A stretch of DNA of 64,000 bases from Squalus acanthias (GCA_030390025.1 CM059432.1:52330001-52394000), one strand, 5' to 3'. Positions 2,990 through 55,052 are shown, counted from the stretch's first letter. Program-made: numbers and translations. Notes: generated by a model from the letters alone, not told the origin.

Positions 2990-3143
2990 ATGCGGAGATG
3001 TTGGACTGGGGTGGACAAAAATGAGAAGTCGCACAACACCAGGTTATAGTCCAACAGTTTTATTTGAAATTACGAGCTTTCAGAGCTCTGCTCCTTCTTC
3101 AGGTACAGTGAGGGAATATAAATCGATTACACCGTGGCAGTGG
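2990..3143 (-). mobile_element. Penelope family A pLTR fragment in an L2 3' end
   Basis: TSD TTCATCAGTG (2980-2989, 3144-3153); pLTR sequence shared with 53184-53311. Confidence 0.82.
3071..3105 (-). ncRNA. Minimal type I hammerhead motif, family A variant
   Basis: TAC-CTGAAGA-a-GGAGC-aga-GCTCT-GAAA-GCTC-GTA. Confidence 0.72.
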
Positions 3144-5410: not shown

Positions 5411-5556
5411 CAGTACAGAAACAAAATACTGCGGATGCTGGAAATACACAGGTCTGGCAGCATCTATGGAGAGAGAAAGAGTTAACGTTTCAGGTCGATG
5501 ACCATTCACCAGAATTGGAAAAAGTTAGAGATGTAACAAGGTAAGAGAGACAAACT
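5411..5556 (-). mobile_element. Penelope family B short 3'-end copy (similar pieces at about 5945-6100, 16885-16975, 36930-37085, 38145-38195)
   Basis: Same tail as 13620-13713; TSD GAGATAT (5404-5410, 5557-5563). Confidence 0.7.
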
Positions 5557-5753
5557 GAGATATTAGGACAGGTTAACAGAGTTAAGCATCTGTAAGGGAA
5601 TTTAGCCAATCAGAATCTATACCCTATTATCTGCTTCACCTCAGGGACCTGGTTTTGAATCTGTTCAATTAAGCAGAGGCCTGTCCATTTTATAGAGAAA
5701 GCAGGCCAAAGGAACTGAGAGTTCGAATATCCTCACTGCTAGCTCAGCATGAA

Positions 5754-5845
5754 ATTGAGAGGTCGCACAACACCAGGTTATAGTCCAACAGTTTTATTTG
5801 AAATCACAAGCTTTCGGCGCTATCGCTCGCCCCTTCCTCAGGTGA
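5754..5845 (-). mobile_element. Penelope family A 92-nt insertion (hammerhead + tail only)
   Basis: TSD AGCATGAA (5746-5753, 5846-5853). Confidence 0.85.
5804..5845 (-). ncRNA. Minimal type I hammerhead motif, family A
   Basis: TCAC-CTGAGGA-..GGCG..CGCC-GAAA-GCTT-GTGA. Confidence 0.72.
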
Positions 5846-19495: not shown

Positions 19496-21357
19496 CAGAT
19501 GGTAGCAAATACAACGTGGGTCAGAAGGCAAGACGAGTTCAAGGACAATCTCAAAAGATTCTGATTTACTTCTTCCAGAAATACACAAGTCCCCATTAAA
19601 AAAAAAAATTTCCGCTCCCATAAAATAACACGAGGTACAGTTCGGTAGGCAACAGCAGCCATTGTACCTTTTTCAATTAACTTCTTTAAGCTATCAGCAA
19701 GTGTTCAGATTTGAATGTGATTTTTTTTTTTTAAAACTGAGTCTGATCCTTTAGCCTCCCAACATCTGCAGACTGCCTGAGACAATGGATAGTAATGTGG
19801 AAAACCAAATTGATTTTACCCCTTCTTAGCCAGGGAAGGAGACCAACTGTAGCATGGTCAATGCTGCCCAGTAGAGATCAGCTAATAGCATTGACTATGG
19901 AATGATACTAACAGGAAAGGCAAGATGCAAAGTCTAGTCTTAGAGTGGTTTGCAGAGATCTTCGAGACCAGTGCCCAAATATTAACCCCCCCCCCCCCAC
20001 CAGCGATAAGAATGAACTTGCATTATAATCGCACCTTTCACACCCTCAGGATGTCCAAGTGTTTTACAGCCAATGAAGTGTAGTCACTTATGTAGGAAAT
20101 GCAGCAGCAATTTGCATACACTGCCTCAGAATATGCAATGAAATAAATGACCAGATAATCTGTTTTAGTGATGTTAGTTGAGGGATAAACATTGGCCAGG
20201 ACACCAGGGAGAAATCTCCTACTCTTCTGCAAATAGTACCTTGGGATGTTTTACATCAACTTGAGGGAGCAGACAGCTTAGTTTAACATCTCACCCGTTA
20301 GACGCAAGGCACCTCCCAATAGTGAAGCACTCCCTCACTGCACTGAGCTGTCAGCTTAGACTATGTGCTCAAGTCTTGTGTGAACCCATGACCTTCAGGC
20401 AAGAGCACTACAACTGGGACAAGGCTGACTCCTAGTCTAAGTTTTACCTGGAAAAATCACAATAAGGAAGTTACCTAAAGCTATCAAAGCAACATTAAAA
20501 ACTGAGCTTACTTACCATAAGATTTGTACTAGTACTAAAAAAAAAATTAACTAATTCATAATCACATTGCAAACTATGATGTCTAGATCTTGTTTATATT
20601 GCATTGCACAGGTCTATTGATTATGTTCACACTGGCTTTTAAAAAAATGACTCATACAACAGGAACTGTTTCACAATATTGCAGACAAAAAAGATGGAAT
20701 GAATAAGGATTAAACAAAACTGCAAGGAAACAGGGGGCATATTGCATTTTTCAAATTCCTTGTGACTAATTTCTTCTGCTGGGTCCCAGACATGGCAAAA
20801 GTCAAAGGACCAAAAAAACAAGCAAATGATCAAGCCAGATGCCACTGTTTTATTAAAGACAAAGTATAATTTTCTCTTTGGGACTCCAAACTGATACAGG
20901 TTCAAGAATAAGCAGACAATTAACTTCATCTATTGCTTAGTTTGAGGAATAGGTGATAAGACACTGTTGCCAAAGTAGGCATCGGTCTTCTAAAAAGAAC
21001 TGGCAGGTATAGGATGACTAATAAGTTACAATACTATAAGAATGCAACATGTCACTGCATGTTAGGTTCATCAGTGGAAGGTATGTTAAAAGCTTTGACA
21101 ATACAAAATCATAAGATTAATCTCTGGGACAAGCATTTACAAGTAAACCTATTCCCAATGTCCTAAGGGCATAGAAGAGTCAACACATGTCACTACATAC
21201 CCATTAGTTTCCAGATCCTTCCTCCTAATCTAAATTGACACTTCAGTGCCATACTGAGGGAGTGCTGCATTGGAGTTGCATATTTGAATGAAAGGTTAAA
21301 CTGATCCCCCATCTGCCCTTTCAAGTGGATGAAAAGATTCCATGGCAGCTGAATCAA

Positions 21358-21453
21358 AATTGAGAGGTTGCACAACACCAGGTTATAGTCCAATAGTTTT
21401 ATTTGAAATCACAAGCTTTCGGAGCTTACTACTCCTTCGCCGGCATCTCCGCA
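21358..21453. mobile_element. Penelope family A micro-insertion (inverted pLTR piece + pLTR end) inside a Deu-type SINE
   Basis: TSD AGCTGAATCAA (21347-21357, 21454-21464). Confidence 0.85.
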
Positions 21454-21909
21454 AGCTGAATCAAGAGCAGGGATGTTCTCCTGGTGTCCAACCAACATTT
21501 ATCCCTCAACCAAGGCTCTGTGCAACTGAAGCATCACTTCATCCCCTTTATATTCTAGCCCACTTGCAATAAATACCTTGCTCATTTTTTGTTCCTATCT
21601 ACTAGGCCTCCCAAATTACTTTGGGATCTCTGAAGGATGTCTTAAGGCAGAGCTCCCCCTGGGGGGAAGGAGTGATGGTTATTTTTGGGGTGGGGGTGTG
21701 AGGAGGTTGCTAGCTGTAACTCAAGACAAGTAATGCCTGCAATATATGTATGTTCTCCATTAGTGGCAGTGTAGCCCAACCCTCACCCGAGGTGGATACC
21801 CAACTCTGCTCCCCTCCAAACAAGTTTAAGCTTACAGGTACTTTTAATGATCTTCAGTTTAAATGTGTTTCCTTCAATTCACAAAAATAAAATTGCTTTC
21901 GGCTCTGTA

Positions 21910-22437
21910 CCTCTATGCCGCTTGGATAGCAAGCTGGCCACAAAACAGCAGGGGTTAAGGGTAGCTGCTCAGATTGGCAAAAGGTGGAAAGTGGTGTTCC
22001 ACAAGGTTCCGTGCTTTACAGGGAATCCGAAGTACAATTTCAAAATTTTGCGGACGACTCCAAGTTGGGGGTATAGTTATTCTGAATGGGATTGACAGGG
22101 TAGATGCAGAGAGGTTGTTTCCCCTGGCTGGAGTGTCTAGAACTAGGGGGCATAGTCTCTGGATAAGGGGTAGGCCATTTAAGACTGAGATGAGAGGAAT
22201 TTCGTTACTCAGATGGTTGGGAATCTTTGGAATTCTCTATCCCAGATGGCTGTGGATGCTGAGTCTGAATATATTCAAAGCGGAGATAGATACATTTTTG
22301 GACTTTAGGGGAAATCAAGGGATATGGAGATCGGGCAGGAAAGTGGAGCCGAGGTCAATGATCAGCCGTGATCTTATTGAATGGCGGAGCAGGCTCAAGG
22401 AGCCTTATGGCCTACTCCTGCTCCTATTTATGTTCTT
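21910..22437 (+). mobile_element. CR1 fragments
   Basis: SGVPQGSV remnant, then GIDRVDAERLFP..TRGHSL and the CR1 tail. Confidence 0.8.
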
Positions 22438-23428
22438 AACCAACACCAGATTAACTGATCATTTCTCAATTCCTACTTCTGCTATTTTGCTGTGCACAAA
22501 TCAGCTGCTGTGTTTGCCTACAAAACCATCACCACACTTCAAAAAAGTAGTTTACTGGCTGTGGAAGGCACTATATGAAAGCAAGCTTGCTCCTTCTCTT
22601 CTCCCTTCAACACCAATGAAAAGCTTACTGGTCAATTTGTTACAATTAGGTCACTCCTTTACATTTTCAAATTATTTTTCCTCATTAAAACAGCAATTTT
22701 CACTGCAGTCACAATATTTCCATTCAAAAGCAGACCACAATCTGCTTCTAGGCCTCCATCCTCCCAACTGTGATCCAACTAGCTGCAACCCTTGTGTACA
22801 CAGGTGGGCTGTTTAAAATCTCCAAATGTTAACTTTATCTCAGTATTGGAGAAAAAGTGAATCCCAGCAGCAGAAGCTGAAATTGGCAGCCTAGGGAGCT
22901 GGGAAATTGAGCAGACATGCAAAACCTGAGCTATACGGAGAATGAAACAAACAGGGATTCTGGGTGATTGTAATAAGGATGGAGATAATGTACTGTTTGC
23001 TATATATGTTCATTCAAATGACCAATCTGTACATACAAGCCTGGCAAGTGTTAGAGAACTATTTAACTGTGAGGCCACCACAACCAAGCTCAAAGCTGCC
23101 TACATCCACTTCTCATTTTCAAGAGAGTTCACTGGATAGCAACATGGAGTAGTAACCTTGGTTACTGTTCTTCCCTAATTGAAGGGGAGTGATCAGGCAT
23201 AGTACCCTGCTTCAATTACCTTCCCTTTCATATTAGGCAGTTCACTGATGATTTTACAGTTCAGTTCCATTCACAACTCCTCCAATAACAAAGAAAGACT
23301 TGCATTTATATAGCGCCTTTCATGACCACCGGACGTCTCAAAGCGCTTTACAGCCAATGAATTATGTTGATTGAGGGATAAATATTGGCCAGGACACCAG
23401 GGATAACTCCCCTGCTCTTTGAAATAGT

Positions 23429-24034
23429 TGAGAGGTCGCACAACACCAGGTTATAGTCCAACAGTTTTATTTGAAATCACAAGCTTTCGGAACTATCGCT
23501 CCTTCCTCAGGTGAAGTAAATTGGATACAGAATCGTCAGAGCATATATAGATGGAAAAAAAAGCATGTGTACTTTACAATTGCAGACCAATAAATTAAAT
23601 CATCCTGACTATCTGCCGAGGTGTGATAAAGTTAATTAAGTCAGCCAGGAAGGTACCACATCAAAAGACATAGCAAGATACAACTGAGACAATGAGGTGA
23701 AGTCGCAGGGGTTCTAACGTGTCAAAAGCTGCCGTCTGTATGTAAAACGAAAAGCTTTAAAAAAAAAAAAATTTACTTTTTTACTGGGAAAATTTTTACT
23801 TTTTTACTGGGAATCACATCTGTGAACAAGCTAACGACGACTCGAGTCCGGATCACGTCATGTATCGTGACATAAACCCAAGATCCCGATTGAGACCGTC
23901 TTCATGAGTGCAGAACTTGGCTATCAGTTTCTGCTCGATGATTTTGCGTTGTCGTGTGTTTCTAAGGTTGCCTTGGAGAACGCTTACCCGCAGATCCGAG
24001 GCTGAATGTCCTTGACTGCTGAAGTGTTCCCCGA
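23429..24034 (-). mobile_element. Penelope family A 3' fragment inside a Deu-type SINE
   Basis: Near-identical to 38680-39279; TSD CTTTGAAATAGT (23417-23428, 24035-24046). Confidence 0.92.
23477..23514 (-). ncRNA. Minimal type I hammerhead motif, family A (sense to MYL12 intron 1)
   Basis: TCAC-CTGAGGA-a-GGAGC-gata-GTTCC-GAAA-GCTT-GTGA. Confidence 0.8.
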
Positions 24035-24249
24035 CTTTGAAATAGTGCCATGGGATCTTTACGTCCACCTGAGCGCAGACGGGGCCTCGGTTTAATGTCG
24101 CATCTGAAAGACGGCACCTCCGACAGTGCAGCACTCCACTGGAGTATCAGCCTAGCTTTATGTGCTCCAGTCTCTGGAGTGGAACTAGAACCCACAACCT
24201 TCTGACTCAGAGGCAAGTGTGCTACCTACTGAGCCACAGCTGACACTGC

Positions 24250-25205
24250 AGCATATGCCAACCCAGAACATTGAGGTTTGGGCTGACAAGTAGCAGGCAA
24301 CATTCACACCACTCGAGTACCAGGCAAGGATCATCAACAAGAGAAGGCCTAACCACCTCACCTTGACTGGCAGGACCATTGCTCAACTTCCAATCATCCT
24401 GATGGGTCACCAGTGATCAGAAGCTTAACCGGACCAGCCACAGCAATACCATGCCAACAAAACAGAGCAGGGGCTGGTTACACTGATGAATATCTCACCT
24501 CCGGAACCATTGTGCCTCTGTACAATCTAAATTGAACATTGTAGAAGTGTGTTGGAATGATCACCACTTACCTGGATGTGTTCAGCTGCAACAACGCTCA
24601 AGCTGACCAACATCCAAGACAAAAGTTGTCTGCTTGATCAATATTTATCACCGCACTTTTGGCTGCTCTATTTTCTATCTACAGGATACACTGCAGCACA
24701 AGCTTAATTCGATAGCAACTCCTAGTTATACAACCTCCACCACTGAAGGATAAAAAGGAAGACTTGCATTTATATAGCACCTTTCACGACCACTGGATGT
24801 CTCAAAGCTCTTTACAGCCAATGAAGTATTTTTTTAAGTAGAGTCACTGTTGTAATGTGGGAAACAGCAGCCAATTTGCACACAGCAAGCTCCCACAAAC
24901 AGCAATGTGATAATGAGCAGATAATCTGTTTTTTGGTTATGTTGGTTGAGGGATAAATATGCAGCAAGATCATGGATCAGCATCACCTTCAAGTTCTCCA
25001 ACTGACATGCCATCTTGACTTGGACAATATCACCATTCCTTCATTATTGGGTCAAAATCCTGGGTTTCTGTAGCTGCCATCATTGTGGGAGCACCATCAC
25101 AAAGACTGCAGCAGTTAACACAAAAGTCCACCACCATCTTTTTAGGGGAACTAGAGACAGGCAATAAATGTGACCTTGCTAGCGCTGACCACATCCAGAG
25201 AACAA
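24250..25205 (+). mobile_element. Old CR1/L2-group LINE 3' fragment interrupted by a SINE piece
   Basis: Degenerate RT C-terminal pattern and tail GGCAATAAATG..GACCACATCC. Confidence 0.55.
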
Positions 25206-26315
25206 AATAAAAATTAAAAGCCACCCAACATGCAAGAGGAATGAAGCCTGGATGTTTGATTTATAGTAAAGTACCACATACATTATTAACCTATTGAACC
25301 AAGGAGGAAGGGGTGCAGCATAATTTAGTTGTGCTCCTGATCAGCTTGCAGCATGACAGCTTACTGGCAGTCTCTTCAGTGAGCAGATCTGGATCAGGTG
25401 AACTGAACTCATTCAAAACTCTGCTGCCTGCATTCTAACTCGTAACAAGTCTCGTTGACCCACCACCCCTGTGCTCGCTGACCTACACTGCCTCCTGGTT
25501 AAGCAATGCCTCAATTTTAAAATTCTTAACATCGTTTTCAAATTATGGCCTCACCCCTCCCTATCTCTAACCTGCTCTAGCCCTCAGGATCTGCACTTCT
25601 CCAAATCTGGCCTCTTGCACATCCCTGATTTTAATCACTCCACCATTGGCAGCCATGCCTTCAGCTGCCTGATAGAAATAAACAGTATCTGATGAAGGGA
25701 GGTTAGTTTTGAATAAGTTTCAGTTTAACTATAAAGTATGGCTAATTTTGTAAAGTACTACATTCTCAAAGGGGAAATTCAAAAAACAAACTTGCATGTT
25801 TACAGCACTTTTCACAGCTTCAGGACATGCCAAAGTTCTGCACAGCCAATAAAACCCCCAGTACACCAGTGATCTACAGTTGTTGGTTTGGTTTCCTGCT
25901 TTGCTCATGCGGTCAAGGAGTGAAAATATGAACTAGCTAAACGGAGGATGACAACTGTGCATTTCTCCAATATTACTTCATTACAAACCATGAAGTAATT
26001 TAACTCACCATAAAGGTCAACTGGAGTAATGGCTTCCCTCCCACTCCCCAACAGCTGCTTTGGCTTCATTTTATATTTGTTGTGGACTTCCAAAACACAA
26101 GAATCTTTAGCCACTCAAACAGGCCAAGTGTGTTAAGAAACTAAAGTTGTTTGGCTGTATCACACTGTTTTACAGAGGCAAGTCCCTGCACATACCAGCC
26201 AAGGAAAGCTGAATGAATGATTAACCACAACTTGTTTTAAGCAAGCAAAACTGTTCAACATTAAGCAGCAGACTTTTCAATTAATACAGTATCTGGTATT
26301 GAAAGGATTCTATAC

Positions 26316-26357
<42 letters not shown>

Positions 26358-27310
26358 AGAAATTAAAGCAACATTTTCTGACTGTTTAATTTATACCTAT
26401 TATTCTGCCACACTTACTATTCCTTTTAAACTTGAAGGGCTTAAACAGTGATCATTTGCTTGTTGGAAATTACACAGCATGACACATCATAAGGGAGGTG
26501 TAGAAACAGAGTTAACTAATTACACAAACCTCTCAGACATGCAATTATTTAAGTCAAGCTAGTGACCTAAATTTTTACCAGGCCTACAAAAGGCTGAAAA
26601 ACAGCACAAGGGCAGATTTTTTTTTTACATTAAAAATGGCACAATTCTCACTTCTACCATTACTTAAAATGTAGATCTTAAATCCCATATAAAGCATGCC
26701 AGGCTTAAAACAAACATTCAGCACAAATGTGACAGGTATGCAAAATACATTTAGTATCATAGAAATGGTACATACTTCTTGTACAACACCAAGTGCTTGC
26801 ATGCCCACAAGAAGTTCATATCAAACAAAAACTCACTTCCCTCCTACTTTCAATGCTGTAAATGTTCAGCTCTCCCCTTTGCCAAGTCACTTCCTCCTCT
26901 ATTCAAATTCTCTCTCTTCCCCTCACCCTAATGCAGAACCATCCAGAAGTCTCAAAACTCACTTATTGGATTCAAATATATGTCTGAAGTTTGGTCTTAG
27001 TCAGGAACCAAAGGTTATAAAGCACACTAAACGCGGTTTAGTATTTAAGAATTATCAAAATTCTTAAGAATGATTTAACATTTTCACGGAGTCAGAAATG
27101 GGATGTGGTTTGAACTTCATAAACATGAACAAGTTCAGGAATCTCAGCCATGTCATCATAGAATGAGAGGAGGCCATTCGGCCCATCATGTCTGTGCTGG
27201 CTCTTATCTAATTTGTCCCACTTCCCTGCTCTTTCCCCATAGCCTTGCATTTCTCCAACACCCCCCCCCCCCCCCGGGCCACCTTTTCAATTCCCTATAG
27301 AAAGTTACTA

Positions 27311-27957
27311 AGCTCATGGTCTACAGAGCAGCAGTGATACCCGCCCTGCTGTACGCCTCAGACACATGGACCATGTACAGCAGGCACCTCATAGCACTGG
27401 AGGTACCACCAACGCTGCCTCTGCAAGATCCTGCAAATCCATTGGCAGGATAGGCGCACCAACGTCAGTGTTCTTACTCAGGCCAACATCCCCAGCATCG
27501 AAGCTTTGACCACACTCGATCAGCTCCGATGGACGGGTCACATTGTCCACATGCCCGATACGAGACTCCCAAAACAAGCGCTCTACTCGGAGCTCCGGCA
27601 CGGCAAGAGCCCCAGGTGGGCAGAGGAAACACTTCAAGGACACCCTCAAAGCCTCCTTGAAAGTGCAACATCCCCACTGACACCTGGGAATCCCTGGCCC
27701 AAGACCGCACAAAGTGGAGGAGAAGCATCCGGGAAGGCGCCGAACACTGAGTCTCTTCGCCGGGAGCTAGTGGAAGCCAAGCGCAGGCAGTGCATGTCAA
27801 CCCAAGCACCCCACCCACCTGCTCCTTCAACCACTGTCTGCCCCACCTGTGACAGACTGTAGGTCCCGCATTGGACTCATGTCACCTGCAAACTCATTTT
27901 TAATGTGGAAGCAAGTCATCCTTGGTTCCGAGGGACTGCCTAAGACAAGACGAGAAA
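27311..27957 (+). mobile_element. RTE-clade LINE 3' fragment
   Basis: VYRAAVIPALLY, QLRWTGHIVHMPDTRLPKQALYSEL, CPTC; purine-repeat tail; inserted in a CR1 3' end (27155-28000). Confidence 0.88.
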
Positions 27958-27999
27958 ACTATTGAATCTGCTTCTACTGCCCTTTCGGGCAGAGCCTTC

Positions 28000-41041: not shown

Positions 41042-41894
41042 GGGGGAGAAATTCAGTATCGCCCCGTTTGGGGCGCAATTATCAGCCGGGCGCAAAGTTT
41101 AGCGCTAATTATCGCCTCCAACTGCAAACTTGGCTTCTATCGCCCCTGGAGGTGATTGGAGCGCTAAATCAGGCGCTACACACCTCTCTTAAGGCGCTAA
41201 CGCCGAGGAGCGAGGCGCTACCTCAGAGCGCTGGCGAAGCTCATGTGATGTCAGTCAGCAATGGAACACAGACACACTGGCGCTGGCCAGTTCTTAAAGG
41301 GGAGGGTCGATCTGCTCATTGCAGCCTTGAATCTCGGCCTGGAGAGACCTGTACATCAAATCTGCTGGAAAGAACAATGAAGAGCTCAGAGTGCAGCCCC
41401 CATAATCTCTTCTAAATCGATGCAAGGAAGGTCAAACCAAAATGAACCTGCAAAGTGCTGCAGAGTACCCAAAACTCCTTCACACAGTGTTGAATCTCTC
41501 CCGAAGTCTCTCTCTCTCTCTCTCAGAATGCGTGGTGCAAAAATGTCACCAACAAAAAAAGGCAGGAAGCGGTCGCCTTTAAATAGCACTCCCCCGTCCC
41601 TTCCCAACTGCAAAACGTTCCCCTCAACCTGTCATTGTTAGCGGCAGGCAGAAAGGCAGGGGGCGCCACTCAATATCCGGTCCGGGGCGCTACCGGGGCG
41701 TTGCACGCTCGACTGACGTCACAATCTGCGGGCGCAGGAGATCATGGCGGTAGTGTTTAGCGCCGCCGTAAAATGTCTGGTCAATTTCGCGAGCGGCGCA
41801 AACATCGCCGCACCCGGGCACTAGTTGCTTTGCGTCCCATTAGCACCCTCTGAGGGCACTAACGGGAGGCGCAAAGCAACCGAATTTTTCCCCC
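41042..41894 (+). mobile_element. Non-autonomous Harbinger MITE related to the 54693-58858 element
   Basis: TIRs GGGGGAGAAATTC / GGGGGAAAAATTC; TSD ATA (41039-41041, 41895-41897); both arms align with the ends of the full element; inserted in CR1. Confidence 0.92.
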
Positions 41895-42570
41895 ATAGAG
41901 TACAAAAGCAAGGACGTTATGCTAAAACTTTATAAATCACTGGTTAGGCCCTAGCTGGAGTATTGTGTCCAATTCTGGGCACCACACTATAGGAAGGATG
42001 TCAGGGCCTTGGAGAGGGTGCAAAGGAGATTTACTAGAATGATACCAGGGATGCGGGTCATCAATTACGTGGAGAGACTAGAGAAGCTGGGGATGTTCCC
42101 AGAGGTAATTGGCAAAAGAACCAGAGGTGACATGAGGAAAAAAAAATACACAATGAGTTGTTATGATCTGGAATGCACTGCTTGAAAGGGTGGTGGAAGC
42201 AGATTCAATAATAACTTTCACAAGGGAATTGGATAAATCCTTGAATTGGAAAAATTTGCAGGGCTATGGCGAAACAGCAGGGGAGTGGGACAATTGGATA
42301 GCTCTTTCAAAGGGTTGGCATAGGCAAGATGGGCCGAATGGCCTCCTTCTGTGCTGTATCATTCTATGATTCTATGAATGCGCGCCTGAACCGAGAGGTC
42401 CGAGACCTGACCAAAATTAGTCCTTGGACCTCATTCCAATCATTTAGGCGACCTGTTGGTTCTTGTCGCGCCTCCACAGGCAGCTATCCCATTTCAGGAG
42501 ATGAAATTTGGGCCACTTGCCTCGCCTACAGCGGCTGTCAGTTGAGAGTCGTGTCTATTTGAAACACCAA

Positions 42571-43311
42571 GGGCTGGATTTTGATACTGGGGCGGGTTGG
42601 GGTCGTGTCATCCGCATTTCGTGTTATCCACCCGACTGCAATTGGATGTGGGAGATTGATGCAATTTTCACCTAATTGGGCAATTGAGTTCCAGCATGTG
42701 GGAACCCATGAACCAATTAGTGGTTTCAGTCTGAAAGTCGCCTCTGATGATGTCATCATTGCTGCTGCATTGAAGGTCAGAGACTGCCTGGCCTTTGCTG
42801 TGAGAGGACCTGGATGCAAAATGAGCAGCAGCCCTAAGGAGAGAGAGAGAGATTTTTTTTTTTGCATCCAGGCCCTCTCACAGCAAAGGCCAGCAGGTTG
42901 AACACCTTCAATGCAGCAGCATCAGAGGCGACTTTCAGACCTAATACTACTACTACCTTCATCACATCTCCGTTGTAATAGTGGACCTGCAGTTGATAGT
43001 CAGCTATCCAAATGTGCTCCCGCCAGGTTTCACAATCGTGGTTCAGAACAGGCGTGCTTCACGTAGATCAAGGGTTAAAATCACAAAGGCCTTTCAAAAT
43101 GGCATTACAGAGCCAATTTAGTGCTTGTTAAGGGCCTTAACAGCCTATCCCGCCTCTTAAAGGCGGGACGGAGTCGGGACCAGCAGACACGATTTAATGA
43201 AAATTGCGTGGAGGCGGGATGGAGGCGGACTTGTGCCCGCCCACCAGTTTTCGCAATTTTAACCCCACACGCCTCCAAACCCGCCTCCACGGGTCAATGA
43301 AAATCCAGCCC
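42571..43311. mobile_element. MITE (Harbinger-like) with internal long hairpin
   Basis: Perfect 12-bp TIR GGGCTGGATTTT / AAAATCCAGCCC; 3-bp TSD CAA. Confidence 0.8.
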
Positions 43312-43314
43312 CAA

Positions 43315-43379
43315 ATTTCTGATTGGTCCCCTTGGAGGACAAGACCAGATTTCTGATTGGTCCCCTTGGAGGACAAGAC
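43315..43379. repeat. 34-bp tandem duplication
   Basis: ATTTCTGATTGGTCCCCTTGGAGGACAAGAC twice. Confidence 0.9.
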
Positions 43380-43529
43380 ACATCCAGCAGTTTGTCTGGA
43401 ATGTGTAATTAGATCCTGCCTGCCTGAGTAATCAAGATCTTCGCAATGTGTAATTTGATCCATTCATTGTGACAGCCAGCTCCAGAGCTCACAGTGCTCA
43501 CACTACTGCTTTCATCCTCGCAGGTTAGG

Positions 43530-44000
43530 ACCTTCTCCCCTGCAACAAGTTCCTTACCTTCCCCCCCAAATTCCTGACCTTTCCCCCCAACCCCCGAGTT
43601 CCTGACCTCCTCCCCCCCCCCCCCCCCCCACCGCCGGGTTCCTGACCTTCTCCCCTATGGGTTCTTGACCTTCTCCCCCTGCCCAAGTTCCTGACCTTCT
43701 CCCCCTGCCCAAGATCCTGACCTTCTCCCCCTGCCCAAGATCCTGACCTTCTCCCCCTGCCCAAGTTCCTGACCTTCACCCCCCGGGTTCCTGACCTTCT
43801 CCCCCCCCAGCCAAGTTTCTGACCTCCCCCGGGGTCCTGACCTTCTCCCCCTGCCCAAGTTCCTGACCTTCCTCTTACCCCCACCCCCCGAGTCCCTGAC
43901 CTCCCCACCCCACCCACCCCCCTGAGTTCCTGACCACCCCCCATCCCTCACCCCGGGTTCCTGACTTTCTGCCTCCCCCCAAGTTCCTGACCTCCCCCCG
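43530..44000. repeat. ~26-bp C-rich minisatellite (CCTGACCTTCTCCCCCTGCCCAAGTT)
   Basis: Repeated TTCCTGACC core with variable C-runs. Confidence 0.9.
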
Positions 44001-44399
44001 CCCCATAGATGGGGCATTGTGTGTGGGTCATGGATTGTTAACAGGTTTATTGGGTATGAAGTGAACAGTGACAGTGTCATGACTTCCAGATTTTGTCCAG
44101 TCCAATAATGTCACTTGCCACACACGCACCGAGCTTTCCGAGAAATCAACCAGGTCTAGGGGGAGGAGAGGGAGAATGTGGTGTGGGTGTAAAGTGGATG
44201 GGGGTGGGGTAGGAAGAATGTGATCCGTCTTCCCATCTGGATTATGTTCTCGTTCTCACCCCACCCCCCGCCCCCCCCCCCCCGCTTTAGACCTGGATCA
44301 CGTTCTTCCCACATCCCCACTGTGCTCTCCATGCTCTTTACCACCCCCCCCTCGAGTTCCTGACTTCCTCTCCCCCTTCCGAGCTCTTCTCCTCTCCCC

Positions 44400-46190
44400 G
44401 CCAATCCTCTCTCTCCCCCTTCGATCCTCTCTCCCCTTCGATTCCCCCTCCCCCTTAGATCTCCTCTCTCCACGCCCCTGATCTCCTCTCTCTACTACCT
44501 TCAATCTCCTCTCTCCCCCCTGCGATCTCCTCTCTCTCTTTCCCCTTCAATCTCCACTCTCTCCCCCCTCCAATCTCCTCTCTCTATCTCCGATCTCCTT
44601 TCTCTCACCCCTCCGATCTCCTCTCTCCCACCCCCCTCCGATCTCCTCTCTCCCACCCCCCTCCGATCTCCCCTCTCTCTTCGATCTCCTCTCTCTCTTC
44701 CCCCTTCGATCTCCTCTCTCTCTCTCCGATCTCCTCTCTCTCTTCGATCCCCTTTCTCTCCCCTCCCGATCTCTTCTCTCTCTCTCCAAGCTCTCTCTCC
44801 CCACCTCCGATCTCTCTCTCTTTCCCCTTCGATCTCCTCTCTCCCCCCACTCCGATCTCCTCTCTCTCTCTGATCTCCTTTCTCCCCCCTCCGATCTTCT
44901 CTCTCTCTCCTCCTCCGATCTCCCTCTCTGTTCTCCTCTCTCTCTCCCCGATCCTCTCTCTCCCCCCTCTGATCTCCTCTCTCTCTTCCGCCTTCAATCT
45001 CCTCTCTCTCCCCCTCCGATCTCCTCTCTCTCTCTCTCCGATCTCTCTCTTGCGCCTTCAATCTCCTCTCTCCCCCCCTCTGATCTCCTCTCTCTCTCTT
45101 CATTCTCCTCTCTCTCTCTCCGATCTTCTCTCTCTCTCCGATATCCTCTCTCTCCCTCCCTTCGATCTCCTCTCTCTCTTCTCCCTTCGATCTCCTCTAT
45201 CTCTCTCCGATTTCCTCTCTCTCTGTTCTCCTCTCTCTCTCTCCGATCCTCTCTCTCTTCCCAGTCCAGTCCCCTCGCTCTCCCTCTTCGATCTCCTCTC
45301 TCTCCCCCCTTCGATCTCCTCTATCTCTCTCTCCGATCCTCCCTCTCTCCCCAGTCCAATCCCCTCGCTCTCTCTCTCCGATCTCCTCTCTCTCCCTCCC
45401 TCCGATCTCCTCTCTCCCCCTTCGATCTCCTCTTTCTCTCTCTCTGATCCTCTCTCTCTCCAGTCCAATCCCCTCGCTCTCCCACTCCGATTTCCTCTCT
45501 CTCCCTCCCTCCGATCTCCTCTCTCCCCCTTCGATCTCCTCTATCTCTCTCTCCGATCTCCTCTCTCTCCCCAGTGCAATCCCCTCGCTCTCTCTCTCCA
45601 ATCTCCTCTCTCTCCCTCAACTTCAATCTCCTCTCTCTCCCCCCTTCGATCTCCTCTCTCTCCCCCTTCAACCTCCTCTATCTCTCTCCGATCTCCTCTC
45701 TCCCCAGTCCAATCTCCTCTATCTCTCTCTCCGATCTCCTCCTGCCCTTCGATCTCCTCTCTCTCCCCCTTCGATCTCCTCTATCTCTCTCCGATCTCCT
45801 CTCTTCCCCCCCTTCGATCTCTATCTCTCTCTCCGATCTCCTCTCTTTCCCCAGTCCAATCCCCTCTCTCTCCCCCCTCTGATCTCCTCTATCTCTCTCC
45901 AATCTCCTCTCTCCTTCCCCCTTCGATCTCCTCTATCTCTCTCTCCGATCCCCTCTCTCTCCCCAGTCCAATCCCCTCTCTCTCCCTCCCTCCGATCTCC
46001 TCTCTCTCCCCCCTTCGATCTCCTCTATCTCTCTCTCGATCCCCTCTCTCTCCCCAGTCCAATCCCCTCACTCTCTCTCTCGCTCCAATCTCCTCCCCCC
46101 TTCGATCTCCTCTATCTCTCTCTCCAATCCCCTCTCTCATCCGCCCCCCCTCCGATCTCCTCTCTCCCCTGTCGATCCTCTCTCTTCCCC
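44400..46190. repeat. 1.8-kb polypyrimidine minisatellite (CGATCTCCTCTCTCTC..., with CCCAGTCCAATCCC variants)
   Basis: Directly visible; almost purely C/T on the + strand. Confidence 0.95.
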
Positions 46191-47979
46191 CCCACCACCA
46201 ATGGATCCCCTGATCTTCTCCGCATGGAGCTGAGGAAAGCCTGGCCCACGGAGCAGGCCACAACGGTTGGGTACTGTGCATGTGCGGCTCCGGAATACTG
46301 TGCGCATGTGCAGAAGGCCGCAAAGGTGTTCGTGCAAATAATCACAGTGGTCAGTTAAATGCTGGGTGGGGGGTGGGCCGAGGACAGTGGGAAGGGGAGT
46401 CGATTGTGGCCTTTAGGGGTACTGTCAAACTGGGAGAAGCATTCTTGCTCCTCCTGACTCCACCTGAATTAAAATATATATATACCTTTCCGGTGGTGAC
46501 CGCTGCGTAGGCCAGGAAAACCTGAGCGGAGAAGGCTTGACATTTGCTCCATTCAGGGCAACCCAATTTCTCAGAGAGGTCTAAAACAGGCCGTAGGCCC
46601 CTTATTAGCATATGCAAGAGGCCTAATGCCTGTTTTAAGTGGCTGATAATCAGGCTTTTCATGCTTCCTTGGGGTGCATAGCCCTGTGAAATTGTTAATT
46701 TTGGGGCCTCTTCTCCGGATGATGACCCATTTCTAGCCCTCAGTGTTACCCATGTTAAGGCCCATGGCAATACTCCATATAAATATTACCGTGGATTCGT
46801 GGCCTGTTTATTTAAATATGCGGTACCTTTAAATTTGCAGCGGCCGCGCATGGACAGTATCTTCAACGGGACAGCTTATGGACAGCCTTCGTGGTACCCT
46901 CACAGATTGCTGCGTGGCCGCGCACCCACGCAGCTTGCAGGGAACATTGATCCAAGGTATAATTGAACTGAGTGCTTGACGCTGGCATAGGTTAATCAAA
47001 GTGCAAAAATGTCCCATTAACAATGTCCCATCACGTTGATGAACACAAAAATACACCAAAAAGTAATTAAACAGAAATCAGAATTGATGAGAACTGTTTT
47101 TTAAATGACAAGTAATTATCATATCTCTACAAAGGGAACATATTTTGAAGAATTCAATGATGGTATTTTGCCCTTTTGATATTTAAAAAATGAACAGGAA
47201 CTAGGAATAATTTGCAGAACTTACAGCTTGCCACATTTTTAAAAGCTTCACACAAACCACTTCATTAGAAGATAATACAACTTCAATGAAAACAAAACTA
47301 TTCTGATGCAAATAGACTTCCAGGTTTAAAAAATGTCAGGCAGATCAAAATAATAACATCAAAGGACTCAGCTTTTTAAAGGTGCAAATCAGATCCAAGT
47401 TCAGGATTGATGCCACCAACCAACATCGAAAATGTGGCAATGTTCAATGATACTTTGCAATTCCTGACTGGAATGTTGTAAAAAAAACATTTATCACAAT
47501 GCGGCACTTACTGCTTTTCCCTCCATTCTTTTTCCAACATGAAATGAGTAATTCTATCTGTACATTATTGCACCTGCTACCTCAGTGAAGAATCCCATGT
47601 GTACCTTGTTAAATAGACTGTATAGAAGTTGTATTGATAACAGTGTAAATATGAAATTTATTTATTGCCATGAGCTTGCAAAGAAACTTCACAACTCATT
47701 GAAATGATTCAGTTTAACTTCTTCAGTGGCAATACCAGCACAGCTCACATCTGATGACATAAACTCAATGAGATTTTCCCCTTCCTATACCCATGGGTTT
47801 ATAATGAGCTCTGCTATGAGTCAGATTCTACTATTAAATATTGTGAACGCATGTTTTAATTATTGGTTCAAATCCACAAAAGATTCATACCAGGGCACTG
47901 AAAATCTGTGCGGTGGAAACTTCTACCCGTTTCTTACAAGGTAAATGTCAGAGGGCAGAGCTGGGGGCCAAGATTCATA

Positions 47980-48872
47980 GGGGGAAAAATTCAGTTGGTT
48001 GCGCCTCCCTTTAGCGCCTTAAGAGGGCGCTAATGGGGCGCAAAGCATCTAGCACCCAGGCGCGGCGATGTTTGCGCCACTCGTGAAATTAACTAGACAT
48101 TTTGCGGCTGCGCTAAACACTACCGCCACGATCTCCTGCGCCGGCAGATCGTGACGTCAGTCGAGTGCGCAACGCCCCGGTAGCGCCCCGGAGCAGATAT
48201 TGAGTGGCGCCCCCTGCCTTACCGCCTGCCGCTAGCAACGACAGGTTGAGGGGAGCGTTTTGCAGTCAGGAAGGGACTGGGGGAGTGCTATTTAAAGGCG
48301 ACCGCTTCCTGCCTTTTTTTGTTGGTGACATTTTTGAACCACGCATTCTGAGAGAGAGAAAGAGAGACTTCTGGAGAGATTCAACGCTGTGTGAAAGAGT
48401 TTTGGGTACTGAGCAGCACTTTGCAGGTTCATTTTGATTTGCCCTTCCTTGTATCGATTTAGAAGAGACTGTGGGGGTTGCACTCTGAGCTCTTTCCCTG
48501 GGCCTCTCCATTGTTCTTTCCAGCAGATTTGATGTACAGGTCTCTCCAGGCCGAGATTCAAGGCTGCAATAAGCAGGATGTGGATGGAAAGCAAGATCAA
48601 CCCTCCCCTTTAAGAACTGGCCGGCGCCATTGTGTCGGTGTTCCATTGCTGACTGTCATCACATGAGCTACGCCAGCGCTCTGAGTTAGTGCCTCGCTCC
48701 TCGGCCTTTGCGTCTTAAGACAGATGTGTAGCGCCTGATTTAGTGCTCCAATCACCTCCAGAGGCGATAAAAGTCAAGTTTGCAGTCGGAGGCGATAATT
48801 AGCGCCAGGCGCTAATCTTTGCGCCCGGCCGATAATTGCGCCCCAAACGGGGCGATACTGAATTTTTCCGCC
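47980..48872 (-). mobile_element. Non-autonomous Harbinger MITE, second copy
   Basis: Reverse-complement homologue of 41042-41894; TSD ATA (47977-47979, 48873-48875). Confidence 0.92.
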
Positions 48873-49545
48873 ATAGAATCATAGAATGATACAGCACAGA
48901 AGGTGGCTGTGTAGCCTATTGTGCCTGTGCCGGCTCCTTGAAAGAGCTATCAAATTAGTCACACTCCCCTGCTCTTTCTCCATAATCTTGCAAATTTTTC
49001 CACTTCAAGTATTTATCCAATTCCCTTTAAAAAGTTATTTTTGAATCTGCTTCCACCATCCTTTCAGGCAGTGCATTCCACACCATAACAACTTGCTGCG
49101 TAAAATTTTGTTTCCTCATGTTGTCTCTGGTTCTTTTGCCAATTACCTTAAATCTGTTTCACGTTGAAGACCTTTTGTCAAAAAGGTCATCGACCTGAAA
49201 CGTTAACTCTGTTTCTCTCTCCACAGATGCTGCCTGACCTGCTGAGTATTTTCAGCATTTTCTGTTTTTATTTCAGATTTCCAACATCCGCAGTATATTG
49301 GGCCAAAAATTCGGCCCTTCGCGGGTGAGTACACAATGCGTACTCACCCGTAAGGCGTCCCGAAGTGTCGGTTTCCTGCATGCACTGCGCATGCACGGGA
49401 AACCGGAACTTCCGGTCTGGTGAAGGGGGCGGTTCAGAGGTGAACCGCATGCGTGGGAGAGGCTGCGCGCACGCAGCAAACTTAGGTTTTTTTTCAGGTT
49501 TCTCCGGGAGGTTAAGTATTGAAGAACCTGCGCTTTTAAAAAGGA

Positions 49546-50505
49546 CGACGAACACCTCGCTAAGGCCATCCCCACGCCTCCACTACTTGCCTTCAAACAG
49601 CCGCCTAACCTCAGAAGTACCATCGTTCGCAGCAAATTACCCAGCTTTCAGGATAACAGCGACCACGACACCACACAACACTGCCACGGCAACCTCTGCA
49701 AGACATGCCAGATCATCAACACAGATACCATCATCACACGTGAGGACACTACCCACCAGGTACATGGTACATACTCATGTGACTCGGCCAACGTTGTCTA
49801 CCTCATACGTTGCAGGAAAGAATGCACCGCGGCATGGTACATCGGCGAGACCATGCAGACACTGAGACAACGTATGAACGGACACCGCGCAACAATCACC
49901 AGGCAGGAGTGTTCCCTCCCAGTCGGGAAACACTTCAGCAGTCAAGGACATTCAGCCTCGGATCTGCGGGTAAGCGTTCTCCAAGGCGGCCTTAGAAACA
50001 CACGACAACGCAAAATCATCGAGCAGAAACTGATAGCCAAGTTCCGCACTCATGAGGACGGCCTCAACCGGGATCTTGGGTTTATGTCACGATACATGAC
50101 GTGATCCAGACTCGAGTCGTCGTTGGCTTGTTCACAGATGTGATTCCCAGTAAAAAAGTAAAAATTTTAAAGTTTATCGTTTCCCATACCGACTGCGGCT
50201 TTTGACACATTGGACCCCCTGTGACTCCACCTCATTGTTTCAGTTGTATCTTGCTATGTCTTTGATGTGGTACCTTCCTGGCTGACCTGATTGCCTTTTG
50301 TCACACCTCGGCAGATAAACAGTCAGGATGATTTAAATGTAGTCGTCTGCCATTGTAAGTTACACATGCATTGTTCTCTATCTATATATGCTTTGTCGAT
50401 TCTGTATTTCTTTACTTCACCTGAGGAAGGGGCCACGTAAGCTCCGAAAGCTTGTGATTTCAAATAAAACTGTTGGACTATAACCTGGTGTTGTGCGACT
50501 TCTCA
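49546..50505 (+). mobile_element. Penelope family A 3' fragment (GIY-YIG end, 3' UTR, pLTR)
   Basis: Homologous to the 51701-52270 ORF end; 12-bp TSD TTTTAAAAAGGA (49534-49545, 50506-50517). Confidence 0.92.
50417..50457 (+). ncRNA. Minimal type I hammerhead motif, family A
   Basis: TCAC-CTGAGGA-stem II-GAAA-GCTT-GTGA. Confidence 0.8.
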
Positions 50506-51435
50506 TTTTAAAAAGGAGGCGCAGGAGCCGTTTTCAACAAGGTAAGTGGTTAATTAAGTATAATTTAAAAAAATTTTCAACAGGTTTATCTTTTTTAGAT
50601 ACTTTAAAGAAAGGTAAGTTTATTTTTAGCACTGTTAAAAAGTATTTTAATTTTTTCAAAAATTTAAATTTTTGTTTAAAGTGGTTAATTTATTTAACTA
50701 TAGTTATTTTATAAATGTGATGGTTTTTAAAAAAAATTATTTTAAGTTTAGCTGTTCTTTTGGGGCTGATTTCAATTCACAGATTTGACAGGTCTTCCTG
50801 TCAAATCTATGAATGAAAGATGGTCTGCTGCCATTGGCTCTCCATGGCCCACGTGATCCCAGGGGACGCATCGCGCTAACTGCGCCCCTGGGACACGCAA
50901 GCACTGCGCGCCGGCACTTGGAGCAGGCCCAGGAGCTGAAGTTCCCGTGGGCCCAAAACACAACGGCAGGTGCGGTAGGTAAGTGCGCACGCGATCCTTA
51001 CCCCCACGGCAAGCCGGAGAGGCGAATTTCAGGGCCATTGCTTTTGTACCTTAAATCTGTGTCTTCTAGTTACCGACCCTTCTGCCACTGGAAACAGTTT
51101 CTACTTATTCTATCAAAACCCTTCATGATTTTGTACACCTTTATCAAATCTCCCCATAGCCTTCTCTGTTCTAAGGAGAACAACCCCAGTTTCTCTAGTC
51201 TCTCCACGTAACTGAAGTCTTTCGTCTCTGGTACCTTTCTAATAGATCTCCTCTGCACCCTCTGACATCCTTCCTAAAGTGTGGTGCCCAGAATTAGACA
51301 CAATACTCCAGTTGGAGCCTAACCAGCGTTTTATAAAGGTTTCGCATAACTTCCTTGCTTGTGTACTCTATGCCTCTATTCATAAATGAGAAGTCGCACA
51401 ACACCAGGTTATAGTCCAACAGATTTATTTAATTT

Positions 51436-51471
51436 TACAAGCTTTCGGAGCTGTCGCTCCTTCCTCAGGTA
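51436..51471 (-). ncRNA. Minimal type I hammerhead motif, 3' pLTR
   Basis: TAC-CTGAGGA-a-GGAGC-gaca-GCTCC-GAAA-GCTT-GTA. Confidence 0.8.
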
Positions 51472-51700
51472 GGGTAGCTGTGAGAGAATCTCCCAGAATT
51501 CACAATATAAACACAGAAAAAATGTATTAAAATCTTTCCCTACATCAAAGACACACTAAGAGCACAGCCAAGACAATGAGATGTGTCCCAGGGGGTCCAA
51601 CGTGTCAAAACACCTGCTGGCTGCATATCCTCTCCATTTGTGTTGGTTCTTGTGTTAGTTTTTTTTAAAAAAACCTGGAAAGACCGGCCATGATGTCAAG

Positions 51701-53180
51701 TCACGTTCTGTATCGTGACATGAACCCGATATCGCGATTGAAGCCATCCTCATGAGTGCAGAACTTGGCTATCAGTTTCTGCTCTATGATTTTGCGCTGT
51801 CGTGTATCCCGAAGGCCGCCTTGGAGAACGCTTACCCGCAGATCCGAGGCTGAATGCCCCTGACTGCTGAAGTGTTCCCCGACTGGGAGGCAACCCTCCT
51901 GCCTGGCGATTGTTGCACGGTGTCCGTTCATACGTTGTCTCAGTGTCTGCATGGTCTCGCCGATGTACCATGCTCTGGGGCATCCTTTACTGCAACGTAT
52001 CAGGTAGACAACGTTGGCCGAGTCACATGAGTATGTACCATGTACCTGGTGGGTAGTGTCCTCACGTGTGATGATGGTATCTGTGTCCATGATCTGGCAT
52101 GTCTTGCAGAGGTTGCCGTGGCAGGGTTGTGTGGTGTCGTGGTTGCTGTTCTCCTGAAAGATGGGTAATCTGCTGCGAACGATGGTACTTTTGAGGTTAG
52201 GCGGCTGCTTGAAGGCGAGTAGTGGAGGCGTGGGGATGGCCTTAGCAAGGTGTTCGTCGTCATCGATGACATGTTGAAGGCTGCGAAGAACATGGCGTAG
52301 TTTTTCCACTCCGGGGAAGTACTGGACGACGTAGGGTACTCTGTTGGTTGTGTCCCGTGTTCGTCTTCTGAGGAGGTCTATGCGGTTTTTCGCTGTGGCC
52401 CGTCGGAACTGTCGATCGACGAGTTGAGCGTCATATCCCGTTCTTACGAGAGCGTCTTTCAGTGTCCGTAGGTGTCCATCGCGTTCCTCCTCGTCTGAGC
52501 AGATCCTGTGTATTCGCAGGGCTTGTCCATAGGGGATGGCTTCTTTAACGTGGTTAGGGTGGAAGCTGGAGAAGTGGAGCATCGTGAGGTTGTCCATGGG
52601 CTTGCGGTAGAGTGAAGTGCTGAGGCGTCCGTCTTTGATGGAGATTCGTGTGTCCAAGAATGAAACCGATTCTGAGGAGTAGTCCATGGTGAGTTTGATG
52701 GTGGGATGGAACCTGTTGATGCTATCGTGTAGTCCTTTCAGTGATCCTTCGCCGTGGGTCCAAAGGAAGAAGATGTCGTCGATGTATCTGGTGTACAGCG
52801 TTGGTTGGAGGTCCTGTGCAGCGAAGAAGTCTTGCTCGAACTTGTGCATGAAGATGTTGGCGTATTGGGGTGCGAATTTGGTCCCCATGGCTGTTCCGTG
52901 TGTTTGGGTAAAAAAATGGTTGTCGAAGGTGAAGACATTGTGGTCAAGGATGAAGCGGATGAGTTGTAGGATGGCGTCCGGAGATTGGCTGTTGTTGGTG
53001 TTGAGTACTGAGGCTGTCGCAGCGATGCCGTCATTGTGGGGGATATTGGTGTAGAGTGCCGATACGTCCATCGTGACGAGGAGTGTTCCTGGTTCAACTG
53101 GTCCATGGGTGCTGAGTTTCTGCAAGAAGTCTGTAGTGTCGCGACAGAAGCTGGGGGTTCCCTGTATGATGGGTTTCAGG
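51701..53180 (-). CDS. Penelope RT + GIY-YIG endonuclease, N-terminally truncated but uninterrupted
   Basis: RT motifs MDVSALYTNI, GTAMGTKFAP, RYIDD; CxxxxCxxC knuckle; VYLIRCSKGCPRAWYIG (GIY-YIG with Cys insert, Neptune-like). The first ~30 aa of the track ORF come from the inverted pLTR. Confidence 0.9.
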
Positions 53181-53183
53181 AAG

Positions 53184-53219
53184 TACCTGACGAAGGAGCG
53201 ACAGCTCCGAAAGCTTGTA
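53184..53219 (+). ncRNA. Minimal type I hammerhead motif, inverted 5' pLTR
   Basis: TAC-CTGACGA-a-GGAGC-gaca-GCTCC-GAAA-GCTT-GTA. Confidence 0.8.
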
Positions 53220-55052
53220 AAATTAAATAAATCTGTTGGACTATAACCTGGTGTTGTGCGACTTCTCATTTTTGTCCACCCCAGTCCAACGCCGGCATCT
53301 CCACATCATGACCTCTATTCATAAAGCCAAGGATCCCGTATGTCTTTTGAACAGCCTTCTCAGCTTGTCCTGCCATCTTCAAAGACTTGTGTACATACAC
53401 CCCCAGGCCTCCGTTCCTGCGCCCACTTTCAAATTGTGCCTTTTAGTTCATATTGCATCTCCTCATTCTTCCTACCAAAATGAATCACTTCACACTCCTC
53501 TGCATTAAATTTCATCTGCATGTGTTTGCCCATTTCACCAGTCTGTCTATGTTCTCCTGAAGTCTGTTACTACCCTCCTCACTGTTTACTACATTTCCGA
53601 GTTTCGTGTTACCTGCAAACTTTGAAATTATGCCCTGTATACTCAATTCCAAGTTATTAATATATATCAAAAAGAGCAATGGTCCCAACACCGACCCCTG
53701 GGGGACACCACTGCACACTTCCCTCCTGTCTGAAAAACAACTGTTCACTTCTACTCTCTGCTTTCTGTTCGTTAGCCAATTTCATATCCATGCAGCCACG
53801 GTCCCCTTAATTCCATGGACTTCAATTCTGCTAACAAGTCTATTATGTGGTACTTTGTCAAACACCTTTTGAAAGTCCATATACACAACATCAACCACAC
53901 TATCCTCATAAACCCTTTCCGTTACTTCATCAAAGAAGTCAATCAAGTTAGTCAAACACGGTTTGCCTTTAACAAATCCGTGCTGGCTTTCATTTACTAA
54001 CCCATATTTTTCCCAGTGCCAATTAATTTTGTCTTGGATTAAAGTCTCTAAAAGTTTCCCCACCATTGACGTTAGGCTAACTAGCCTGTGGTTGCCAGGT
54101 TTAACACTCGCCCCCCTTTTTTAAACAGGACTGTAACATTTGCAATCCTCCAGTCTTCTGGCACCACTCCCATATCTAAGGACAATTGGAAGACTGTGAC
54201 CAGAGGCTCCGCAATTTCCACCTTTACTTCCCTCAGCAATTTTGTATGCATCCCATCCGGTCCAGGTGACTTTTCTACTTTGAGCGCTGCCAAGCCTTTT
54301 AGTACCTCCTCTTTATCTATTTTTATCCTATCTAATTTCTCAACTACCTCCTAATTTACTGTGACATTGGCAGCATCCTCTTCTTTAGTGAAGACAGATG
54401 CAAAGTACTCATTTAGTGCCTCAACCATGCCCTCTGCCTCCATAAGATAATCTCCTTTTTGGTCCCTAATCGGCCCCACCCTTCCTTTAACTACCCTATT
54501 TATATGTTTATAAAAGACTTTTGGGTTCCCTTTTATGTTGCTCGCTAATCTATGCTCATACACTCTCTTTACCCCTCTTATTCCCTTTTTCAGTTCTCCC
54601 CTGTACTTCTTGTATTCAGCTTGGTTCTATACTGAATTATGAACGCAATACTTATCATAAGCCTCCTTTTACTGCTTAATTTTAGTCTCTATGGGGGAAA
54701 AATTAGGTCGCGCCCCGTTTGGGGCGCAAATATCGTCTGGACGCAAATATTAGCGCCTGGCGCTAATTATCGCCACTGACTGGAAACTTCACTTTTACCG
54801 CCCCGGGAGGTGAGTGGAGCGCTAAATCAGGCGCTGCACACCTGTCTTAAGGCGCAAAGGCCGAGCAGTGAGGCGCTAACTCAGCGCGCGAGCGCAGCGC
54901 AGGTGCTGCCAGTTAGCGAGGGAACACAGACACACTGGCGCCGGCCAGTTCTTAAAGCGGGGGGGGGCCAACTTGCTCCCCAGCCACACCCTGCTCATTG
55001 CAGCCTTGAATCTCGGCCTGGAGAGACCTGTGAATCCATTTTGCTGCCAAGG

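Follow-up and report, generated by a model that had tools for sequence, protein, structure and literature searches.

A Penelope-like element of Squalus acanthias inserts at a loose, two-sided target motif with 12-bp spacing

The stretch of DNA analysed here (the window) covers 64,000 nt of the Squalus acanthias genome (GCA_030390025.1, CM059432.1:52330001-52394000) and carries seven insertions of a Penelope-like retroelement, which are presented in Table 1 with their target-site duplications (TSDs), the coding region and hammerhead-type motifs. The element is very abundant: a 25-nt end motif gave 94,568 exact matches in the 3.7 Gb of genome searched. Three of the insertions lie in three diverged copies of one short interspersed element (SINE), which we take to be SacSINE-like, and each starts after ATGGC; they are independent events, with different TSDs and inserts of 96, 606 and ~658 bp. 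Insertion 5 lies in a sequence that reads as the reverse transcriptase (RT) frame of a long interspersed element (LINE), presumably a CR1; this site and three looser ones are as the first-pass annotation of the window quoted them. That annotation had proposed that the endonuclease prefers CCWTGGC^W and uses an abundant SINE as a landing pad, with the element and the SINE pointing the same way in all three.

Table 1. Coordinates of the Penelope-like insertions and associated features in the window.
Feature	Position	Strand	Details
Insertion 7	2980..3153	-	~155-bp copy with long tail; duplication CACTGATGAA; left half-site CTCTGCC
Insertion 6	5746..5853	-	92-bp mini copy; 7-8-nt duplication
Hammerhead-type motif	5806-41	-	
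Left half-site, SINE copy 1	21340..21346	+	CCATGGC; full match to CNNTGNY; 6.2 bits
Insertion 1	21347..21464	.	TSD AGCTGAATCAA, copies 21347-57 and 21454-64; 96-bp insert
Insertion 2	23417..24046	-	TSD ACTATTTCAAAG, copies 24035-46 and 23417-28
Hammerhead-type motif	23479-510	-	
Insertion 3	38615..39288	+	TSD ACTACTGA, copies 38615-22 and 39281-88
Hammerhead-type motif, terminal repeat	39196..39231	+	
Insertion 4	49534..50517	+	12-bp TSD TTTTAAAAAGGA; 960-bp copy; site CCTGCGC / GGCGCAG
Hammerhead-type motif	50421-55	+	
Insertion 5	51375..53325	-	12-bp TSD TTTATGAATAGA; head-to-head 1.9-kb copy in LINE
Hammerhead-type motif	51437-68	-	
Open reading frame (ORF), 5'-truncated, open	51701..53185	-	RT, CX4CX2C linker and GIY-YIG-type endonuclease with CCHH and R/H/E/N residues
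Inverted arm of insertion 5	53187..53311	+	Hammerhead motif and long (tailed) 3' end
Hammerhead-type motif	53187-218	+	

The ORF in the window contains an RT (Pfam RVT_1, E 2e-8) in the single-ORF layout of endonuclease-positive Penelope-like elements, and one frame of at least 848 aa is found at locus L057, where it is frameshifted near its end. In seven aligned proteins the residues Y69, C73, C77, Y82, G84, R93, H97, H113, E143 and N158 are invariant, giving a C-terminal GIY-YIG-type domain with the CCHH motif and the catalytic R, H, E and N; the Pfam GIY-YIG model did not match the window domain, and it matched the homolog P0024. The linker cysteines C30, C35 and C38 are invariant in the same proteins and form CX4CX2C. 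This fits the CX2-5CxxC linker between RT and endonuclease that is common to Neptune and Nematis (PMC8557442, in excerpt). By the definitions in that excerpt the linker would be of Neptune or Nematis type, and the motif classes the element as putatively Neptune-like. The nearest named homologs are shark proteins (80-94% identity); the homolog search returned no clade names. Copies are arranged in tandem or inverted, with a tail at one end.

Insertions were sampled blind to their target from several sources: the window itself, 160 kb of DNA that was either neighbouring or random, the first 100 matches along C1, 30 of the 39 loci of a small subfamily, and a rare point variant, of whose 81 loci 50 were fetched and 46 used. 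The 243 ends gave 125 unique TSD calls; 71 ends over all sets gave no call, and a tandem cluster (L181-L184) was left out. The length distribution has its mode at 12 bp (7 bp, 9; 8 bp, 11; 9 bp, 6; 10 bp, 6; 11 bp, 11; 12 bp, 43; 13 bp, 19; 14 bp, 15; 15 bp, 4; 16 bp, 1), the longer calls including chance matches to element ends and some of the short ones being false. Selected on a TSD length of 12 alone, 43 insertions (86 half-sites) share the motif CNNTGNY^N12^RNCANNG, in which both flanks carry the same half-site, mirrored, around an AT-rich 12-bp core. C-7 is found in 54 of the half-sites, T-4 in 55, G-3 in 58 and Y-1 in 77 (p 1e-11 to 1e-17). The signal stays after clustering to one site per repeat (35 clusters), and also at position -1 after correction for excluded bases (A 2 vs 16.6 expected, G 7 vs 22.8 expected). 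Shifting the register by 1-3 nt lowers the matches from 81-86 to 13-32 of 129, and the left and right flanks agree.

A palindromic consensus may arise by averaging one-sided sites (bioRxiv 10.1101/034991, in excerpt). Full half-sites are found on the left in 15 of the 43 sites, on the right in 16 and on both sides in five, where 5.6 would be expected of a two-sided target and 0.2 of a one-sided one; both halves score positively in 23 sites (p 7e-7 vs a one-sided mixture). For held-out sites the median background tail probability is 0.002, so the target is a strong preference and not a unique site. The motif proposed earlier thus had the right register (C-7, T-4, G-3, C-1) and rightly ascribed a sequence preference to the endonuclease; it was too narrow, CCWTGGC being one case of the CNNTGNY half-site, and it missed the mirror half-site 12 bp away. 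TGGC is not the core, as it ends only six of the 86 half-sites (TGCC 12, TGCT 7). A one-sided YTGGC motif, our own early reading, was dropped after the two flanks of the exact-12 sites were compared.

Concerning the ends, 87 of the 125 calls (~70%) are head-to-head copies, a few of which are the two sides of one event. Each of the 63 with both ends called pairs one long end, which has a tail of ~40 nt, with one short end, and the other 24 obey the same rule; among plain copies, 29 have a short end and nine a long one. In the exact-12 set, the TSDs match the RNA downstream of the junction more often than permuted TSDs do over the first 6 nt, both at 40 short ends (125 matches vs 83) and at 28 long ends (70 vs 48), an excess reached in 0 of 5000 permutations at either end. 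At the SINE site, TSD base +8 shifts the junction (89 subfamily-a rows, hand-counted): the full CTCTCA end is found in 33 of 45 rows with C and in one of 44 with T (p 4e-13), and in the T rows the end most often seen is shorter by 3 nt, at a point where the overhang and the RNA share ATTTTG. The variable hammerhead stem is the same in both arms of 26 out of 30 events, against 2.6 when shuffled. Arms that clearly differ in this stem indicate that two RNAs are used at least sometimes, and a strict one-RNA model was dropped for this reason. A rule by which the arm with the long tail is shorter than its partner was also rejected, the short-end arm being longer in nine of 22 elements above 400 bp.

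Based on the motif and the ends, we consider it likely that the element integrates at this degenerate palindrome through a double nick with a 12-nt stagger, and that both overhangs prime reverse transcription. The GIY-YIG endonuclease would nick each strand just 5' of RNCANNG, which would leave two 12-nt 3' overhangs and duplicate the AT-rich core. Each overhang would then pair loosely with the sense RNA of the element and prime a cDNA, one from the short and the other from the long (tail) start site, and host end-joining would link the two cDNAs. The enzyme would probably bring two nucleases to the site as a dimer.

Alternatively, a single endonuclease domain could nick first one strand and then the other, the Cys-rich linker measuring the distance; target and stagger would be unchanged without a dimer, and the mirror-image motif would also be expected of one nuclease. 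Sequential nicking by a monomer is known for I-TevI and I-BmoI (PMC3664794, in excerpt), a title in the reference list of PMC12774661 (seen in part) names a linker zinc finger as distance determinant, and the CX4CX2C linker is invariant here. The nicks of I-TevI, however, are 2 nt apart (CNNNG; PMC12774661) and not 12, priming from two ends requires two RT events, and a dimer is predicted for the anole protein (PMC11167929). Our own prediction for two copies of residues 1-135, made without an alignment, scored 0.01 and is counted for neither reading. We regard a sequential monomer as possible, if rather doubtful.

The inverted ends could also be explained by an antisense template, through self-priming or fold-back, with a single ordinary target-primed event afterwards; in that case only the motif would be new. 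This is the published reading (PMC3846280, in excerpt), and several inversion joints are indeed palindromic; many others are not, the arms often stop at different places and some come from different templates. As both outer ends match the sense RNA downstream of the junction above the level of permuted TSDs, we find fold-back unlikely. At one inversion joint, in a head-to-head copy (L004/L005, C1:176090-178570), a short telomere-like GTTAGGGTTAGGG stretch is present.

The SINE offers a natural experiment on the second half-site, since the left half, CCATGGC, is identical in every variant counted. Intact sites of the common spacing number 19,586 (~97% of intact exact sites), 298 of them with a G-to-C change, and 656 belong to a short variant whose 3-bp deletion sets AGCAGGG exactly 12 nt from the left half, completing the palindrome. 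Among 165 forward short-end junctions at this position only 13 are in the long variant (seven common, five G-to-C, one other), and the remaining rows among the 100 junctions listed are all short-variant. Junctions per intact site are thus 152/656 for the short variant, 5/298 for the G-to-C variant and 8/19,288 for the common one, or 560:40:1; intact and occupied patterns differ in stringency, so that only the ratios between variants are meaningful. A matrix built from 41 sites, none at the SINE position, predicts 8.5 bits or ~360-fold where ~560-fold is seen, and 3.1 bits or ~9-fold where ~40-fold is seen for G-to-C. In the reverse orientation the short variant is found in nine of nine readable loci (of 12). 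Age does not separate the variants: SINEs with insertions at a second position are clearly long-variant in seven of ten independent cases, counted after merging nine duplicates, and median divergence is 0.09 for 20 short, 0.07 for 20 long and 0.09 for 28 occupied copies.

That a one-sided CCWTGGC^W target makes the SINE a landing pad is therefore very improbable. In its favour, CCATGGC matches the half-site in full and the SINE position has 211 exact short-end junctions; yet where the left half is constant, changes in the right half alter the frequency of junctions 40- to 560-fold, and the abundant variant holds 13 junctions in its 19,586 intact sites. The supposed fixed orientation does not hold genome-wide either, as 165 short ends share the direction of the SINE and 46 oppose it (equal-length patterns); in insertion 1 itself the short end is opposed to the SINE, with which only the 16-nt tail arm agrees.

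It is hardly credible that the 3-bp deletion was made by the insertion itself, even though it falls within an AAGAAG repeat adjoining the TSD end, as 656 intact short-variant sites exist, a substitution without deletion has a 40-fold effect and the short variant is found in both orientations, or that one composite SINE-Penelope unit was amplified, as 26 of 30 SINE-site loci read (from 64 exact junctions) have a clean TSD (20 of 12-13 bp, six shorter; one is the window's own) and 25 different lengths (71-1021 bp) in several subfamilies. One control junction does occur nine times on one chromosome (L154-L162, C10), in three clusters with copies 28-37 kb apart within each, and is a segmental or tandem duplication.

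Looking at all sampled insertions, the window is not typical. Outside the window region four to five of 118 insertions touch the SINE, compared with 1.3% of random DNA (p 0.07 and 0.02), and one lies at the SINE position; in the window, where SINE content is 3.4%, three of seven do (p 2e-5 to 3e-3). The SINE as a landing pad fails. The 125 calls form 97 clusters, the largest of which (12) is the LINE site with insertion 5; 961 junctions, counted in a single orientation, fall in one variant of this site compared with 165 at the SINE site, these being junction counts and not occupancy. Site specificity of the R2/Tx1 type, with nearly all copies at one repeat position, was not seen, and no microsatellite is present among the 35 site clusters listed. 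Repeats turn into hot spots only where both half-sites chance to be spelt 12 bp apart. Further recurrent hot spots in other repeats have three to four insertions each (L175, L144, L150; L024, L053, L180), and one of them has GAT at -3 to -1 on the left.

The window sites vary in their fit to the motif. Insertion 1 is a head-to-head mini copy, whose short end faces left and whose 16-nt long-tail arm faces right; its empty site has a 12-nt spacer and the right half-site AGCAGGG. Insertion 2, a 606-bp 5'-truncated copy, also lies in a SINE of the short spacing, with both half-sites matching fully. Full two-sided matches are also found in insertion 5 (CCTTGGC / GGCATAG) and in the empty site of insertion 6, at 12-nt spacing (CCCTGGT / AGCAGTG). 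Five of the seven sites score 7.9-18.2 bits, and the site at 5852 scores 6.2 bits. Insertion 3, a ~658-bp 5'-truncated copy in a diverged SINE, has an exact register, as the C at 38614 is common to the SINE and the element end; its left half-site is partial and the right one fits at 13 and not 12.

Several observations speak against the double-nick account. Insertion 3 scores 0.1 bits at 12-nt spacing, and the motif is loose, with both halves full in only five of 43 sites. Of the 125 called sites 43 enter the logo, and 20 of these come from one chromosome's first 3 Mb. A scan of 31 short-TSD sites, a set that holds false calls and register shifts, gave no peak at 12-nt spacing. The anole element started copying in vitro at sites not homologous to the cut DNA (PMC11167929). 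In four of the 30 events the arms differ in the hammerhead stem, so that competition for one RNA cannot alone explain the long and short rule. One of the two end subfamilies is also weaker (G-3 27/52 vs 31/34; T-4 27/52 vs 28/34).

The stricter subfamily is a (window 23429/39280) and the weaker one b (window 50505/51387), to which all seven junctions in the common SINE variant belong. With arm divergence of 0.25% and 0.6% both look young, and age is an unlikely cause of the difference in stringency. The hammerhead-type core motif of the terminal repeat covaries in stem I (CAC/GTG vs TAC/GTA); an Rfam scan of it gave no match, and the minimum free energy single-strand fold of the 3' end did not show the putative hammerhead and was no stabler than shuffles (z -0.47). 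Many arms end ~85 nt from the short end, at TCAC immediately 5' of this motif and ~35 nt behind a TATATA, as if RNA started there (mini head-to-head copies L014, L017 and L030; window 39150-39200). The L057 locus (3334-6520) is a tandem unit with the near-full ORF and its frameshift in the endonuclease, and its long tail continues into the ORF start codon. An end-sequence scan of metagenomes for other species gave 0 matches.

Elsewhere in the window, self-comparison found an array of diverged tandem or near-tandem repeats (43529-46199, 65-76% identity), and a 302-aa frame without stops lies at 54780-55688. We take a segment of this frame to resemble Myb/SANT, possibly from a Harbinger-type transposon gene.

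The element type, the inverted ends, the tail and TSDs of about this size are already known: a tail at one end only is known for Penelope-like elements (PMC8557442, in excerpt), as are TSDs of 8-10 bp (PMC3846280, in excerpt). Known target preferences are for AT-rich DNA or microsatellites, with variable TSDs (PMC8557442, in excerpt; PMC11167929), and PMC8557442 (same excerpt) calls it an open task to explain how the ends become inverted and the tail one-sided. We found no palindromic Penelope target or twin-priming account in the literature, and none of the former in the part of the PMC8557442 supplement searched; subscription papers (Pyatkov 2004, Arkhipova 2006), Repbase and supplements could hold one.

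The shark element resembles the Neptune clade, as excerpted from PMC8557442, in its RT followed by a C-terminal GIY-YIG-type domain, CX2-5CxxC linker and CCHH, and in a terminal-repeat hammerhead (a candidate here), an inverted 5' copy and a 30-40-bp tail at one end. Neptune is described there with a microsatellite bias, moderate preferences, and variable nick distances and TSDs, whereas the target of the shark element is a non-repetitive palindrome whose second side is set by sequence, with TSDs most often of 12 bp. The Poseidon element of Anolis carolinensis, studied in vitro (PMC11167929), cuts and extends both strands and is predicted to be a dimer, as we suppose for the shark element; its two RT start sites bracket the tail, and the ends of the shark copies may be likened to them. 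In contrast, Poseidon prefers ATT or AT-rich DNA, is without the Neptune linker and has the non-homologous starts mentioned above, while the genomic copies of the shark element have a bipartite motif and excess homology between primer and RNA. I-TevI and I-BmoI share short, tolerant preferences near the nick and a preferred AT-rich centre; their site is CNNNG, the nicks lie 2 nt apart, and a separate binding domain positions them (PMC12774661, in excerpt). The shark element, unlike them, has two half-sites outside nicks that would lie 12 nt apart. In twin priming of mammalian L1, the second target end primes a second cDNA, so that a single TSD encloses a copy with its 5' part inverted; the internal site from which the second primer starts is variable, and there is hardly any overlap between the arms. 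In the shark element, by contrast, one terminal repeat is copied into both arms, starting from two fixed zones, in ~70% of insertions.

The results caution that hot spots of one repeat in another are not to be taken as evolved landing pads. A two-sided motif of fixed spacing, together with one-base and three-base natural experiments across ~20,000 copies of the SINE, provides exact substrates as well as predictions in numbers, and suggests a target-primed retroelement with a sequence-defined second cut. Only tentatively, with doubt slightly outweighing belief, do we extend this to Neptune-type elements in general, which may integrate in a concerted, two-ended reaction where a dimer reads a palindrome, makes a break of fixed 12-nt stagger and lets each 3' overhang pair with the RNA at one of two starts built into it. 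If so, the break would be like that of a DNA transposase or integrase, and the reaction would account together for the TSD of the class, its inverted repeats and its one-sided tail, and provide a defined substrate for its reconstitution.

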